Below are positions 6,337-15,811 of a stretch of DNA of 20,000 bases, in pieces. Source of the stretch: an uncultured virus (IMG/VR IMGVR_UViG_3300020231_000201) (taxonomy: Duplodnaviria > Heunggongvirae > Uroviricota > Caudoviricetes). Position 1 is the stretch's first letter. Each line of letters starts with the position of its first letter. The translations under genes were made by a program, and so were the position numbers. The stretch lies in IMG/VR virus record IMGVR_UViG_3300020231_000201. One strand, written 5' to 3'. The notes under the pieces were generated by a model that was not told the DNA's origin, did not search any database, and worked only from the letters and a program-made list of their open reading frames with translations.

Positions 6337-6417
6337 ATGGGGAAAGGAAACGAGAATATTCTCGAACAAATATGTCAAGACCTTGACATTAAATCGTTTG
6401 AAACAGAATTAGATTAA
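6337..6417 (+). CDS. Possible 26-aa acidic micropeptide
   Basis: MGKGNENILEQICQDLDIKSFETELD; leaderless spacing from the TATA-like box; stop overlaps the convergent gene's stop. Confidence 0.4.
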   Translation: MGKGNENILEQICQDLDIKSFETELD

Positions 6418-6857
6418 ACAAGACTCATTTTTCTTGTGTAATCATAAACACTAAGGTTAGCTTTCTTCGCTTTTCTAACGATCTTTTTGTATTCTCGTTC
6501 GGTAAATCTTAATGCAATAACTTTTTTTCTGTATGTATGAGAGATGTTTACAATTTCTGTCAGTTTAGGTATAGTGAATTTCCTTCTTTGCAAACAACCT
6601 ATGAACATATCATTAACTTTACTTGTTACAAACCATGATTCTAGGAACATTTCTTTATGAACTGAATAAGAACGAATGAAAAAACGATCAAATTTTTTAT
6701 CATATTTGGTTATCACATACTCCCCATGATGCAGTTTGCATTTGGAATCTCTATTCGGGCATTTTGCAGTTGGAATTATTATAGGAAATTTTGATTTTTT
6801 CAAGGTTTCAAGAATAATTTTCACTGTAAATTTCCTATCACGAATAGGCAATACCAA
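6414..6857 (-). CDS. Putative transcription regulator with C-terminal ribbon-helix-helix (MobC/DUF1778-like)
   Basis: RKKVIALRFTEREYKKIVRKAKKANLSVYDYTRK fits the RHH strand-helix-helix pattern; divergent from the membrane-gene run. Confidence 0.75.
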   Translation of the reverse strand: MVLPIRDRKFTVKIILETLKKSKFPIIIPTAKCPNRDSKCKLHHGEYVITKYDKKFDRFFIRSYSVHKEMFLESWFVTSKVNDMFIGCLQRRKFTIPKLTEIVNISHTYRKKVIALRFTEREYKKIVRKAKKANLSVYDYTRKMSLV

Positions 6858-6915
6858 TAAAATTGATTCGTTCCTACATAACCTTTGATTTACACGTTTA
6901 CACGCCCTTTCACAA

Positions 6916-6950: not shown

Positions 6951-7430
6951 GTGAAACAAGATGGTCAAAAGATTTCCTTCGGTTCTTTCAGCATTATCAC
7001 AATTCTTGGTATTCTTGGTGTTCTTGGCATGATTCCGATCTCTTATGCCCAAGACTATGGTGAAATTGGTAATGAGTTTATGGACCAACTGACTGAAGGA
7101 GTTGAGACTGGAATCACATCAATTGACATTCCAGATGAAAACATCATAGATACAACTCAAGAGGAGGTCGATAGCCTGGCACAGTCATTTGCCGAATGGA
7201 TAAATTCATTCTATGACTTTGGCAAAAAAACCCACAGTGTTACAGAAGATGCTATGGCAGTTGTAGCTCCTTCTTGGGTTGATGGGATCATAATTTCGAT
7301 TATTGCAGGGGCAGTTGTCGTGTTGATAATGTGGAAAGTGTTCAAGAGAGTGGGTATTCATTTGGCAATTGCATTTGGAATTTTGGCTGCTGTGATAGTT
7401 TTCTTGATGCTTTTAGACTTAAATTCTTGA
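6951..7430 (+). CDS. Membrane protein: signal peptide, acidic ectodomain, two C-terminal TM helices
   Basis: Hydrophobic stretch ending SYA-Q, D/E-rich middle, two hydrophobic helices; GTG 6951 preferred to track start 6885. Confidence 0.75.
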   Translation: MKQDGQKISFGSFSIITILGILGVLGMIPISYAQDYGEIGNEFMDQLTEGVETGITSIDIPDENIIDTTQEEVDSLAQSFAEWINSFYDFGKKTHSVTEDAMAVVAPSWVDGIIISIIAGAVVVLIMWKVFKRVGIHLAIAFGILAAVIVFLMLLDLNS

Positions 7431-7460
7431 CCTATAATTGCTAAAAACACCTATTTTATT

Positions 7461-7938: not shown

Positions 7939-8568
7939 ATGACCGATCTGCTTACTAAACAAAAACTTTCCTTCGCTGAATTTTTTCTTCTTTTAATTGT
8001 GGGTGGTTCTGCACTAGTAATTTTAACTTACAGTGATATAGTCAATCACGATTTCTACGTCTTACCAATTATTTCAGAATGTTTTGCCGAAAACCAAAGT
8101 GAATTTTGTTTAAACATTAGAGAATTACATGGACTCCCATCAGATGCACACATAACTTTAGGTTCTGCATATTGGAAACTTTTACAGCTTCAAGCAATTG
8201 GAATTGGAATAATGTTGTTTGTTTTACGAGTAGGATTCGGTTACTTGGCAACAAAAAAAATTGACGGGTTACTCATCATCAAAGGTTTCATTTGGGGAGG
8301 AACATTTAGTTTGCTATTTTTATTCGGGTGGCTTGACTTCGGATATTATGTAATACAACAAGAACCAATACCTGAACAATTGCCCTGGTTGGATCAAAGT
8401 GGAGTTTTTGTTTGGCTGAAGATGTTCGGAACTGATCCTTTAACGGTAGATAGAGGAGATTTGTATTTAGGAATGTTAATCGGTGCTGTGATAATTTTGG
8501 CAATTTGGATGCTTTTCGTTTACAAATGGAAACAAGTACAAAGAATAGGGAGGCAGATTGGTGTATAA
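7939..8568 (+). CDS. Membrane protein, about 4 TM
   Basis: Hydrophobic segments, loop Cys pair, motif GWLDFGYY...PIPEQLPWL. Confidence 0.75.
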   Translation: MTDLLTKQKLSFAEFFLLLIVGGSALVILTYSDIVNHDFYVLPIISECFAENQSEFCLNIRELHGLPSDAHITLGSAYWKLLQLQAIGIGIMLFVLRVGFGYLATKKIDGLLIIKGFIWGGTFSLLFLFGWLDFGYYVIQQEPIPEQLPWLDQSGVFVWLKMFGTDPLTVDRGDLYLGMLIGAVIILAIWMLFVYKWKQVQRIGRQIGV

Positions 8569-8780
8569 TGGCTAAAGAAGCTGTGTTTCTAGGATTAGTA
8601 ATTAAAGATCCAGTTTGGTATTTGATTGTATATCCATTAATTTTTGCATTGACTTTCGGTGGATTGTTAGCAGGAATTGAAGAATCATTCATTGATATTT
8701 CAGAAACTCTTGCAGCAACGTTCTCAATAGTTTTTGCAGGATTTATAACTTTAATTCTAAGATCGGAGGCTAAGAAATAA
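8568..8780 (+). CDS. Small 2-TM protein
   Basis: MAKEAVFLG...; ATG 8568 is TAATG-coupled (track start 8505). Confidence 0.7.
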   Translation: MAKEAVFLGLVIKDPVWYLIVYPLIFALTFGGLLAGIEESFIDISETLAATFSIVFAGFITLILRSEAKK

Positions 8781-9094
8781 TGGTAGACAAAAACACCAAT
8801 CGAATTTTATTAATTGCTGGTTTAGTGCTTTTGTTTATCGGATGGCTTAGTGTCTTTACTGGATTTGCAGGATTCATTCTTGCAGAAGATTTTGAATTCT
8901 TCATAGAAATTGAAGATATGCTTTTGATTAAACAGGTAATTACAGAAGAATCAATTCAATTCCAAATGGGAATTAGAATAATCTTTGGGTTCTTGTTCAT
9001 ATTTCTTGGAAACCAGTTCCTACTCTCAAGTAATTTGGTTAGAGAACGGTTTTGTAGACCATGTATAGATGATGTGAGGAATTTAAAAAAATGA
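8780..9094 (+). CDS. 2-TM protein with C-terminal CxxC
   Basis: Two hydrophobic helices, then FCRPC. Confidence 0.7.
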   Translation: MVDKNTNRILLIAGLVLLFIGWLSVFTGFAGFILAEDFEFFIEIEDMLLIKQVITEESIQFQMGIRIIFGFLFIFLGNQFLLSSNLVRERFCRPCIDDVRNLKK

Positions 9095-9171
9095 CTTGTA
9101 ATTGCTACAAAGATCTAAATCCAGATGAGCCTCCACACGATCCTAAAATATGCGAGTGTGATTGCCATTGA
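9091..9171 (+). CDS. 26-aa metallothionein-like peptide
   Basis: MTCNCYKDLNPDEPPHDPKICECDCH; overlaps both neighbours. Confidence 0.6.
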   Translation: MTCNCYKDLNPDEPPHDPKICECDCH

Positions 9172-11291: not shown

Positions 11292-11440
11292 CTGAAAAAA
11301 AAGAAGAATTTACTTTTGAGTTTGAAGATATCCCAAAAGAGAAATATAACGAATTAGAATCTTTACTGATTAAATATATGGACACAAAAATAACAAGAGA
11401 AGAATATTTGGATAAAGTAGAGGAACTACTAAATGATTGA
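11288..11440 (+). CDS. 50-aa acidic protein
   Basis: MTEKKEEFTFEFED...; TTGA-coupled. Confidence 0.6.
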   Translation: MTEKKEEFTFEFEDIPKEKYNELESLLIKYMDTKITREEYLDKVEELLND

Positions 11441-11564
11441 TGATCCTTATCTTCTTGAAAGGATTGATGATTTCAAAAAGTTAGTTCGCATTTATTTTGA
11501 AAAGAACTTCGATCAGGAGTTTGCAGAGGAATCCGTGTTCATTTTGAATACAATAGAAACGTAA
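11433..11564 (+). CDS. 43-aa acidic protein
   Basis: MIDDPYLLERIDDFKK...; overlaps the previous stop. Confidence 0.55.
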   Translation: MIDDPYLLERIDDFKKLVRIYFEKNFDQEFAEESVFILNTIET

Positions 11565-11565
11565 T

Positions 11566-11573
11566 TTTTAAAA
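11566..11573 (+). promoter_or_regulatory. TATA box (TTTTAAAA) for the putative ncRNA
   Basis: Would place the transcription start near 11595-11597, at the base of hairpin 1. Confidence 0.5.
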
Positions 11574-11594
11574 CCAACCGGTAATAGGAATAAC

Positions 11595-11938
11595 TGGTGG
11601 ATGGGAGATCATTATTTGGCTAAGATTACCTCCTGTATTTTTTGCCAGGTGATGTGAACCCATTCATCATCGTCTACCAAAGCGACCTAAAGCTTTTGTT
11701 ATTGTATTTGAATCGTAAAAATAAGAGTGTAGTCGAATAGGTTGGCGTAGATAAAGGCACTATTCATTCGGAGGCTACACTCTTTTTTCTTTGACCTCCA
11801 ATGTACGCTAATAGCATGGAAAGTATCAATTGAATAATGTAGGTAGCTGGGCATTTACTCTTATAGATCCCTACCCCCTGAACGGTAATTTTATAACTTC
11901 ATGGTCCTGACTATCGGGTAGGTCGATTCAAGAGTGGG
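11595..11938 (+). ncRNA. Putative structured non-coding RNA or RNAs with three long hairpins; family unknown
   Basis: Stems 11595-11605/11659-11669, 11723-11734/11773-11784, 11854-11862/11930-11938 and 11870-11876/11916-11922. G-U pairs favour the plus strand; no credible ORF; visibly more GC-rich than the flanks. Confidence 0.65.
11783..11792 (+). terminator. Possible oligo-T terminator after hairpin 2
   Basis: TTTTTTCTTT at the 3' base of a 12-bp stem. Confidence 0.35.
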
Positions 11939-11951
11939 AAATGATGCTTCT

Positions 11952-12248
11952 ATGATTGACGATAGAAAATATCCTATCGTTATGTTTGGAAACGAGATGT
12001 TTATGGAATTAGAGAAACATGACGATGAAAAAGGTCTAAAATTCTATAATATGTCAGTGGAGAAATTATTCAAATTACTTTACGAACAAAGCAATAACAG
12101 ATTAACAAACATTGAAAAAACAATCTTCAGGGAAGATATGCCATTAAAAGACATTGAAAAGAACTGTGTGCATATGGCAAATTACTTTTACTTCCTTTGG
12201 ACCGCAGCAAAAAAAATGAGGTATGAGATGAAGGAAAAAAACAAATGA
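11952..12248 (+). CDS. Hypothetical helical protein
   Basis: Track ORF 11934..12248; ATG 11952 preferred because GTG 11934 lies in the hairpin 3 stem. Confidence 0.7.
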   Translation: MIDDRKYPIVMFGNEMFMELEKHDDEKGLKFYNMSVEKLFKLLYEQSNNRLTNIEKTIFREDMPLKDIEKNCVHMANYFYFLWTAAKKMRYEMKEKNK

Positions 12249-13614: not shown

Positions 13615-15207
13615 TTGAAAATTAAATTAGGTTTTGAAGTTTCAACAGGAAAACAAATAGACATCGATCTCTCACATTTAATTGCTACAGGTATTACACA
13701 ATTAGCAGGAAAAACAGTAACACTTGAATCACTACTTAAAAGAAGTGGATTAAACGGAATTGTATTTAAAACAAAAATTGGTGAACGAGGTTTTTCTGAT
13801 GGGAAAATAGTTGCACCTTATTTCAAAGAAAGATCTGATTATGAATTTGTAAAAAGTTTGATTGAAGCGTATTCAAGAGAAAAATTATATTTTGAAAAAG
13901 GAACATTAATGGAACTTTGTAAAGGATCTAATAATTTAAACGAAATCAAAGATAGGACTGATCAGAATCTTTTAAATCCAAAAACTAGAGGGATTAAAAG
14001 AGAAATTTACATAAGATTACAGCATTATCTTGAAGCAATAATTCCACAAATACAAAATGCAAACTTTACTTCAAAACTTGTAATAGAAAATGGAATTAAT
14101 ATAATGGATTTGGTAAAATTTACTGAAGAAGCACAGTCATTGATTATTGAAAGTGTAGTTTCTGAAGTATTAAAATCTAAAACAAAAACAATTATCGTAA
14201 TACCTGAAGCATGGAAATTTATTCCACAAAAATATAATAATCCATGTAAAAGAGTAGTTGAAAGCTTTATTCGACAAGGTGCTACAAATCAAAATTATAT
14301 TTGGATAGATAGTCAGGATATGGCAGGAGTAGATAAAATTCCATTAAAACAAATTTCTACCTGGATATTAGGATATCAATCTGAAAGAAATGAAGTAAAA
14401 CACACGCTGGACCAATTACCACCACCTGATAAAATTAAACCACAAGTTAAAGATATTATGACATTAGGTACTGGATTTTTTTATTATGCAAGTCGTGAAT
14501 TAACAACCAAAGTTTACGTTCAACCTTATTGGTTATCGGATGAACAAGCTAAACAAGTAGCAATTGGATCTATTAGTATAGAAGATGTTAAATCAAAACA
14601 ACCTAAAGAAGTAGAAATATTAGCTCCAACAATTCCTACAATTCCAACTAAAGATAAATCTGATGATTTAATGAACTATGTTGATAAGGTAGTTGGTGGA
14701 ATTCAACGACAAATCAATGAACTAAAGGAACAAATAAAAAAACCTGTAATCAATAAGGATGAAATTATTAAAGATATAGTTGCTAGAATCCCTAATACAG
14801 GAAATATTATTTATGAAATAGCACCATTAGAAAAAATTAAAAAAGACTTTTTGGAATCAGCTAAACAAAAGATTTTGCAGGATGTAAATACATTGAATGA
14901 TGAATCAAAACAAATGTTGAGATATTTAGAATCAAGGGGTGTAGGAACAAGTGTTAATGAATTAGCAATCAAATGCTTTCTTAAACCTCATGGTGCTAAT
15001 CCTTACAATAAATTTGTCAATGATTGTGGTAGGCAAATCAGCGATAAATTATTAGTAAAAAAACAAACAAATGGAAAATGGTTAGGAATCTTGAAAGATA
15101 GAATTAAAGATTTGCTAGAAGTCCATGAAGCATCTGAACAAGAGATTGATAATTTATACAATCATATCATAATGGAATTTCTAGCAAAAAAGGTTGAAGC
15201 AAAATGA
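13615..15207 (+). CDS. HerA/FtsK-superfamily-like P-loop ATPase with coiled coil and possible C-terminal winged helix
   Basis: HLIATGITQLAGKT (Walker A), IIVIPEAWKFIPQ (Walker B position), RQG and DSQ downstream motifs. Confidence 0.75.
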   Translation: MKIKLGFEVSTGKQIDIDLSHLIATGITQLAGKTVTLESLLKRSGLNGIVFKTKIGERGFSDGKIVAPYFKERSDYEFVKSLIEAYSREKLYFEKGTLMELCKGSNNLNEIKDRTDQNLLNPKTRGIKREIYIRLQHYLEAIIPQIQNANFTSKLVIENGINIMDLVKFTEEAQSLIIESVVSEVLKSKTKTIIVIPEAWKFIPQKYNNPCKRVVESFIRQGATNQNYIWIDSQDMAGVDKIPLKQISTWILGYQSERNEVKHTLDQLPPPDKIKPQVKDIMTLGTGFFYYASRELTTKVYVQPYWLSDEQAKQVAIGSISIEDVKSKQPKEVEILAPTIPTIPTKDKSDDLMNYVDKVVGGIQRQINELKEQIKKPVINKDEIIKDIVARIPNTGNIIYEIAPLEKIKKDFLESAKQKILQDVNTLNDESKQMLRYLESRGVGTSVNELAIKCFLKPHGANPYNKFVNDCGRQISDKLLVKKQTNGKWLGILKDRIKDLLEVHEASEQEIDNLYNHIIMEFLAKKVEAK

Positions 15208-15365: not shown

Positions 15366-15599
15366 TTGATAATACATACAAACTTACACACTTTTTTACA
15401 TGATATTTATCGTCATGTAGTATTTCTTATACGATTACCATATCATGTGATATTTCATCATCAAGAATATGGTCATACAGTCAGAGGTTTTATTTTATGT
15501 GATGAACCTTGTGGTTACTGCTATGACGGTGGATATGCTTGTATGAATTGTCATAGATGTTATGATAATAGTAAATGGATAAGGTTGTTTGTGATATGA
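15366..15599 (+). CDS. His/Cys-rich small protein
   Basis: 9 His and 6 Cys in 77 aa. Confidence 0.6.
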   Translation: MIIHTNLHTFLHDIYRHVVFLIRLPYHVIFHHQEYGHTVRGFILCDEPCGYCYDGGYACMNCHRCYDNSKWIRLFVI

Positions 15600-15811
15600 A
15601 TCAATTAGAAAAAACGTTTCACGATTTAGTAATTCAGGCAGAGAATAACCAAAAAGCCCAAATGGAATTTAGTGTAGCCTATGATAATTCAAAATATCAT
15701 GGAATAGAAATGCCTGATGAAGTTGTTGAAGTTCTAGATTACGGTAGAGCAAAAATGACTTATGAAAGATTCATTGAAATCATGGATGAGGAATTAAAAA
15801 CTGGATCGTGA
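15575..15811 (+). CDS. Hypothetical acidic protein
   Basis: 78-aa ORF; alternative ATG at 15596 gives ATGA coupling. Confidence 0.65.
   Translation: MDKVVCDMNQLEKTFHDLVIQAENNQKAQMEFSVAYDNSKYHGIEMPDEVVEVLDYGRAKMTYERFIEIMDEELKTGS

Follow-up and report, generated by a model that had tools for sequence, protein, structure and literature searches.

A candidate structured RNA of a virus-like element of ammonia-oxidising archaea and its possible mimicry of a host antisense RNA

We identified a putative structured RNA on the plus strand, led by a TATA box of its own and outside the families of Rfam, in an intergenic gap of a 20,000-nt stretch of DNA (hereafter the window) that probably belongs to a virus-like element of marine ammonia-oxidising archaea. 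Conservation, compensated stems and the TATA spacing in relatives support this RNA, the transcription of which is predicted, and we consider it very likely that the gap holds a functional structured RNA. The loop of its 5'-terminal hairpin recurs in a single-copy hairpin RNA of host-family genomes, which is complementary to the start region of an unlinked zinc-ribbon gene and co-varies with it, and two separate pieces of the viral RNA are complementary to the same region. The viral RNA may thus be a mimic of the host antisense RNA that recognises its target through a split seed and represses the zinc-ribbon gene, a model in which we place as much belief as doubt. More tentatively still, the virus might in this way copy a core host small RNA and hold shut a conserved zinc-ribbon gene with a possible role in defence or stress, in which case the RNA and its target would form a core circuit exposed by the viral copy.

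Genomic setting and likely host

The window comes from a contig of 98,301 nt (locus L005). Ammonia-oxidising archaea, the presumed hosts, are major players in marine nitrification. Among 29 window proteins, two are ParB-like and one has a weak match to a terminase family (E 0.0026), while no capsid or portal gene was seen among these proteins, the analysis covering about 22 kb of the 98-kb contig. The 25 proteins of related loci likewise included no terminase-family match and no capsid gene was seen among them. Atlas neighbours of the 104-aa protein encoded directly downstream of the gap are mostly viral clusters, and the best 80 of 286 genome loci matching a 72-aa zinc-finger ORF are titled Nitrososphaerota or Thermoproteota. 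Both the viral nature of the window and its assignment to these archaea are therefore given as likely, as judged from gene content and sequence matches.

The gap and its predicted folds

The initial annotation had placed a candidate novel non-coding RNA with three long stems in the only long non-coding gap, of about 385 nt. The gap is the largest stretch of the window without a plus-strand ORF of at least 40 aa, but it extends over 369 nt (11565–11933): the last 18 nt of the annotated region, which ended at 11951, fall in the 104-aa ORF if this starts at GTG 11934. A 43-aa ORF flanks the gap on the 5' side and the 104-aa ORF on the 3' side. The features of the region are listed in Table 1.

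Table 1. Predicted features of the RNA gene and its flanks (window coordinates)
Feature	Position	Strand	Evidence
43-aa ORF ahead of the RNA gene	11433..11564	+	homologue in the same position in L010/L020, L016/L017 and L018
Putative promoter P1, TATA-like T run plus AAA	11565..11573	+	T-run start 30–33 nt before the first H1 base in 4/4 distinct copies that include upstream sequence
H1, rod hairpin at the 5' end; transcript predicted to start near 11596	11595..11669	+	fold z and compensated basal pairs
Apex ACCUCCUG and 3' flank, putative antisense piece 1; loop as in the host RNA	11628..11643	+	predicted to form 16 contiguous pairs with host site L209
H2, exchangeable hairpin in the variable middle part	11723..11784	+	z near −4 on either strand
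U-rich tract that may act as linker or partial terminator	11783..11792	+	T-rich runs in the same position in 4 other distinct copies
UGACC..CAAUGUA, putative antisense piece 2; complement of the region around the UUG start of the host target	11792..11805	+	conserved in relatives; resembles host RNA 5' arm
UAGGUAGCUGG segment; can pair back on piece 2	11840..11850	+	consensus helices, columns 10–19 with 52–64; resembles 5' end of host hairpin
H3 5' arm; in read-through RNA predicted to pair across the next gene's leader and start codon	11856..11876	+	outer helix with two two-sided changes, inner helix invariant
Putative promoter P2, TATA-like TTTTATAA within the H3 loop	11889..11896	+	first T 31 nt before T|A step (A11920) in 6/6 copies
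H3 3' arm: predicted P2 start A11920, 14-nt leader, start codon	11916..11936	+	start codon in the same position in relatives
104-aa three-helix protein, function unassigned	11934..12248	+	26 homologues

Compared with shuffled sequences, the whole annotated region folds with a z of −2.29 on the plus and 0.10 on the minus strand. H1 folds as proposed, and its plus-strand specificity, attributed in the initial annotation to G-T pairs, is borne out by 6 G-U among 29 pairs and by z values of −5.0 on the plus and 0.0 on the minus strand. The stem of H2 is real (z −3.8 on the plus strand) but lacks strand specificity (−4.0 on the minus strand). H3 is not significant alone (z +0.65 on the plus, −0.5 on the minus strand), although both of its stems are kept in the consensus of relatives; the branched loop that it was said to close is instead a 40-nt loop without consensus pairs and with a TATA-like motif inside. 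The best 100-nt tile over H1 ranked only 9th of 399 tiles on the plus strand (20 shuffles each), so that folding alone is not decisive.

In archaea, the TATA box lies at about −30 from the transcript start. The proposed box TTTTAAAA (11566–11573) is present and is conserved in relatives; as a background for TATA-like calls, TTTWWAW occurs 40 times on the plus strand of the 20000-nt window. The layout of P1 also fits the archaeal arrangement of TATA box, BRE and T(A/G) initiator given in the accessible text of PMC7289017. The initial annotation could not match the RNA to tRNA, SRP, RNase P or CRISPR; Rfam 15, including tRNA, SRP, RNase P, riboswitches, CRISPR repeats and C/D sRNA, gave nothing near a gathering score for the window (best score RAGATH-30, 21.8 of 59.5 bits) or for L016 and L018. 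ARAGORN predicted 0 tRNA or tmRNA genes in the window, and none of the 20 largest repeat families listed falls in the gap.

Several more specific identities were considered and dropped. Group I intron, FMN riboswitch and HDV-like ribozyme were compared with the relatives by eye and had motifs that either lacked conservation or came in the wrong order; the motifs of an SRP Alu domain, Y RNA, tRNA T-arm, K-turn, bulge-helix-bulge, CsrA site and origin boxes were likewise not conserved or misordered in relatives. A minus-strand Shine-Dalgarno site plus peptide was rejected as no ORF is conserved there. A leader peptide on the plus strand would start at the conserved ATG 11801, but stops follow at codons 7–14 and changes are mostly non-synonymous.

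Relatives and conserved layout

Alignment of the homologues of the 104-aa protein yielded 19 loci for comparison. Eight of them carry the RNA element (the window, L006, L010, L015, L016, L017, L018 and L020; six distinct copies), nine have the 104-aa gene without the element upstream, and two lack upstream DNA. The layout is constant and consists of the 43-aa ORF (no usable Atlas match), the TATA box, H1, zero to about seven unrelated hairpins and a 150-nt conserved block that ends in the start codon. The three-stem picture of the region thus needs correcting: judged from the aligned relatives, the conserved parts are H1 and the block at 11788–11936, whereas H2 is exchangeable and H3 overlaps a second, predicted promoter and the next start codon. 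Middle hairpins are lacking in L010 and L015, and L016 has two others and L018 about seven.

The four complete H1 copies share pairwise identities of 43–56% and have z values of −3.5 to −6.5 on the plus strand (4/4) and of 0.0, −1.8, −3.4 and −2.6 on the minus strand; H1 of L010 and L018 folds on both strands, whereas H1 of the window and L016 is plus-strand-specific via G-U pairs. The 8-mer ACCUCCUG at the apex is invariant in all five copies that reach it, the CUCCU of the loop has an unpaired probability >0.9, and each viral element has one ACCTCCTG. The loop sequence ACCUCCU is identical to the 3' end of the 16S rRNA of the host in 3/3 genomes, so that pairing is possible with any strong GGAGG site. 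A derivation of H1 from a 16S rRNA fragment was rejected, the longest shared words being 8–11 nt.

Of 21 runs, none was listed as RNA, which says nothing about expression. Contigs from four of these runs contain relatives that cover the gap, evidence of presence only, and two of these contigs diverge at 11669 and 11788, adjoining hairpin ends. Scans of viral contigs for homologues returned none, with only chance matches plus two weak protein matches that model R1 did not match; a pattern search of genome contigs gave 0 and a phage collection nothing relevant. The 3' block model had no match in the sets of 5 and 1 genomes searched, and neither its pattern nor any member of the 104-aa family was found in 401 genomes. 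Separately, the locus L008 has an ORF-poor gap (8260–8790) before a gene of the 104-aa family, with a T run after the stop codon and short look-alike motifs; models R1 and R2 do not match it and its z is −1.36.

The 3' block and a putative second promoter

In a consensus structure of the 3' block from four sequences, 93.9% of cells are paired and 5 pairs are two-sided; 4 of 500 shuffles reach its score (a count that is not a probability), and the model built from these four finds L010 at 59 bits. The inner H3 helix is invariant and hence uninformative on covariation. For the outer helix, cognate arms are best or tied in 5/6 columns, and L006 and L016 break pairs.

We infer a second promoter, P2, inside the block because a TATA-like motif precedes a T|A step at constant distance in all six copies (Table 1) and because a 14-nt loss in L010 puts ATG exactly at the predicted start step. 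The start codon at the end of the block is ATG in L015, L016 and L018, GTG in the window and TTG in L006. The 104-aa protein itself has no convincing Pfam or fold match, its structure matches are generic helical only, and the Atlas gives a weak MazG-like lead (below 0.9).

A host hairpin RNA with the same loop

As host family we took that of G003 (record titled Nitrosopumilus sp.) and searched 151 genomes. The H1 model matched seven of these at E 0.05, which equals the chance count and makes the matches meaningful only through their identity: six of the seven are one syntenic intergenic hairpin with the loop AAACCUCCUGCAA. Nine copies of this hairpin of about 60 nt gave a structure of 22 pairs with 93.4% of cells paired, 5 two-sided pairs and a score reached by 0 of 500 shuffles, and many G-U changes fix its strand. 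The derived host model (R3) finds the hairpin in 93 of the 151 family genomes and in 45 of 121 class genomes, all 45 also from the family sets. The host RNA gene is single-copy and chromosomal, has its own TATA box (e.g. L149:1494-1566, L187, L196) and in 33/33 parsed loci is arranged tail to tail with a gene of the AIPR family. We inspected 39 loci, 6 of which were unparsed and 3 mis-picked; loop and upstream TATA match in all 30 usable ones. The host loci had no match in Rfam.

In the reverse test the host model misses the window H1, which is not among its 11 matches at E 5 or better, and its best viral match is the loop of L018 alone (E 0.036); the viral and host stems are therefore not detectably homologous. 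L018 matches the host loop over 17 nt, and the viral 3' block resembles pieces of the 5' arm of the host RNA (reached by 0–37 of 500 shuffles; top of 260 window tiles). The part common to both RNAs is accordingly the loop, plus the host 5'-arm pieces in the viral 3' block. Both are rod hairpins about 30 nt after a TATA box with the apex ACCUCCUG(C/U)AA and the same predicted mRNA site. The host RNA, however, has one contiguous 24-nt antisense, whereas the viral RNA is longer and has unrelated stems, a split antisense and variable hairpins.

The host target gene

Across five host genomes 76 GCAGGAGGT sites were counted and 30 inspected, of which 19 fall within long ORFs, 3 belong to the RNA gene, 4 are of other kinds and 4 precede ORFs. 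Two of these last four extend into full complementarity to the host RNA, with 24 contiguous predicted pairs between RNA and target of one genome. The antisense covers a Shine-Dalgarno-like site and the UUG start of the zinc-ribbon gene, which is unlinked to the RNA gene. The target-site pattern occurs in 49 of 101 genomes (reversed control 0), 31 of which have at least two sites; the variable base agrees between the RNA gene and the second site in 28 of the 31, and the other three keep a G-U pair (counted by eye). All six second sites inspected precede a zinc-ribbon ORF of 81–83 aa with a predicted TTG start. Conserved 82-aa examples are L209:1498-1763, L235 and L238-L241. The target ORF has 265 homologues, mostly named hypothetical proteins of Nitrososphaerota, and its zinc-ribbon Pfam matches are only sub-threshold.

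Two further observations concern these sites. An ATG just upstream of the target gene (L209, L235) begins a 9-codon ORF that crosses the antisense site in a different frame. In L227 and L233 a second conserved GCAGGAGGT site lies 10 nt before the ATG of an 81–82-aa host ORF and may be a further target of the loop.

Complementarity of the viral RNA to the target

The H1 apex of the window forms its contiguous predicted pairs with the target at −23.2 kcal/mol, and piece 2 is predicted to bind the neighbouring start region of L209 through 16 pairs, interrupted by a 3-nt bulge, at −15.4 kcal/mol. Taken alone, piece 2 places the target at ranks 23–348 of 970 sites. With both window pieces scored, the six target sites, which are orthologues, rank 1, 4, 8, 9, 23 and 25 of 970 GGAGG sites, in a test that was designed after the target had been seen (and is easier for it) on a site set that preceding searches had enriched for strong GGAGG (which makes it harder). 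The best two-piece ranks of the other copies are 3, 2, 1 and 9, so that the best rank is 1–9 across all five copies, and the worst is 157; L016 has a mismatch in piece 2, and two target sites rank 73 and 157 with it. Some of the sites that rank higher correspond to the opposite strand of the host RNA gene, which the filter had missed. Piece 2 lies beyond the U tract, which possibly terminates transcription, and is also predicted to pair intramolecularly.

Proposed mechanism and alternative explanations

In the proposed mechanism, P1 would transcribe a non-coding RNA that starts at the base of H1 and extends at least to about 11805. This RNA would imitate the single-copy host small RNA, which is antisense to the target through its 5' arm and loop: the exposed H1 loop would dock on the GGAGG site of the target mRNA and the motif at 11792–11805 would cover its start codon, while the variable hairpins between the two pieces fold out of the way. 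The predicted effect is that the host zinc-ribbon gene is kept untranslated during infection, possibly to the benefit of the virus. Separately, P2 in the 3' block may drive the downstream genes, the start codon of which would be hidden by read-through from P1.

The identity of the loop with the 16S 3' end also suits a general anti-Shine-Dalgarno small RNA that, in the manner of cuckoo or 6C RNAs, pairs through H1 with many viral or host GGAGG sites, the host likeness being due to convergence or to an old capture since retargeted. AGGAGG sites lie ahead of viral ORFs (e.g. window 13079, L015 509–527, L016 3331–3349), and H1 alone is not target-specific, since it places the target at ranks 12–163 of 944 GGAGG sites. 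Such an RNA would, however, leave unexplained the conserved CAAUGUA, the host-matching bases 3' of the loop and the host-arm likeness of the 3' block, and AGGAGGT-ATG sites are rarer in the five host genomes together than in the reversed control (112 vs 195); we consider it unlikely. Distinctly improbable, in our judgement, is a decoy that displays the host loop to titrate a protein or nuclease, or whose 3' block invades the host hairpin, so that the host gene is de-repressed. The same loop on an unrelated stem and the AIPR-family neighbour of the host RNA gene would agree with it, as would the predicted pairing of the viral 3' block with the host 3' arm at −9 to −17 kcal/mol, but the host hairpin itself, at −24 to −30 kcal/mol, is more stable than these duplexes, no partner protein is known, and the viral loop variants retain their predicted pairing to the mRNA.

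A purely cis-acting leader would distinguish a long silent from a short active mRNA, made from P1 and P2, respectively, with C-rich and G-rich segments that switch pairing like an attenuator. Compared with the short transcript, opening the leader and start codon of the long one is predicted to cost an additional 3.8–8.8 kcal/mol in L006, L015, L016 and L018 but only an additional 0.4 kcal/mol in the window and 1.4 kcal/mol in L010, and the compensated helix over the start codon has broken pairs in L006 and L016. The L018 module keeps its ATG when another gene follows, as expected of a leader; nine loci have the same gene without the element, and the match to the host RNA would go unexplained. 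We hold this, as the whole explanation, to be about as improbable as the decoy, although a cis-acting leader and the mimicry of the host RNA are compatible and can coexist. A DNA-level element without functional RNA, such as an origin, operator array or terminator hairpins, would account for the almost indel-free 3' block with its fixed 57-nt and 39–40-nt spacings, for the recurring GGTAG and CTACC and for the folding of H2, L010 H1 and L018 H1 on both strands. Against it stand the G-U pairs that make H1 of the window and L016 plus-strand-specific, the TATA spacing that sets the start at the hairpin base, and the recurrence of the loop in a hairpin gene of the host that co-varies with an mRNA site, and we regard it as highly improbable.

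Relation to known RNAs

RNAIII is a bacterial chromosomal RNA with C-rich loops that pair with mRNAs. The C-rich loops of 6C RNA (PMC6486639) likewise pair with mRNAs, as is predicted here, but 6C RNA is bacterial and chromosomal and was not matched here in Rfam. Cuckoo RNAs (RSs0680 family) resemble the viral RNA in having variable compensated stems under an anti-Shine-Dalgarno-like loop; as described in the available part of PMC4615179, they consist of two to four adjacent hairpins, each with CCUCCUCCC, and occur in alphaproteobacteria, whereas the viral RNA belongs to an archaeal element and has one such loop, with the apex ACCUCCUG and not CCUCCUCCC. Pseudo-ToxI of phage PhiTE is likewise a virus-encoded non-coding RNA resembling a host regulatory RNA, but, as far as the accessible text of PMC3475682 goes, ToxI mimics act on a toxin protein, which they inhibit by means of expanded repeats; the viral RNA has one loop copy per element, is predicted to be antisense to an mRNA, and no toxin was identified. 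For the candidate RNA gene, which is outside known families, the most plausible mode of action combines that of an antisense RNA with a C-rich loop and that of a viral RNA mimic.

In the literature searched, which was mostly without subscription papers and included the accessible parts of PMC3432209 and PMC5069720, neither the viral nor the host RNA is described, and we found neither a small RNA with a target for ammonia-oxidising archaea nor any RNA of an archaeal virus imitating a host regulator. The available table of PMC10690425 contains three candidates of thaumarchaeal hosts, two of them of 64 and 76 nt, which are known by their listing there and may overlap with the RNAs described here. 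The main text of bioRxiv 10.1101/2025.08.23.671958, in the part available, does not mention non-coding RNA. The defined host RNA, its co-varying target and the viral copy can all be tested with short RNAs and reporters, and the unannotated zinc-ribbon protein emerges as one whose silencing may be necessary to a virus. Should the viral mechanism prove wrong, the pair of host RNA and target would be unaffected.

Further features of the window

The two ParB-like genes are in tandem (30–1510), each with a similar cysteine-rich tail at its end. A motif common to two gene ends (7419–7453 and 9083–9117; repeat family D9) may be a promoter or terminator. The 530-aa ATPase-like protein encoded at 13615–15207 has 824 relatives and a match in one of 401 genomes (G246, locus L156), where a 52% relative lies beside a ParB-methyltransferase gene; the loop motif is absent from this contig. 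Opposite the 5' part of a minus-strand ORF (6414–6857) with a NikA-like C terminus lies a long plus-strand hairpin (6750–6860, z −5.0), which could be an antisense RNA or reflect a wrong start of the ORF. Another hairpin, at 15490–15610, lies within a coding region and has a z of −2.5 on the plus strand.
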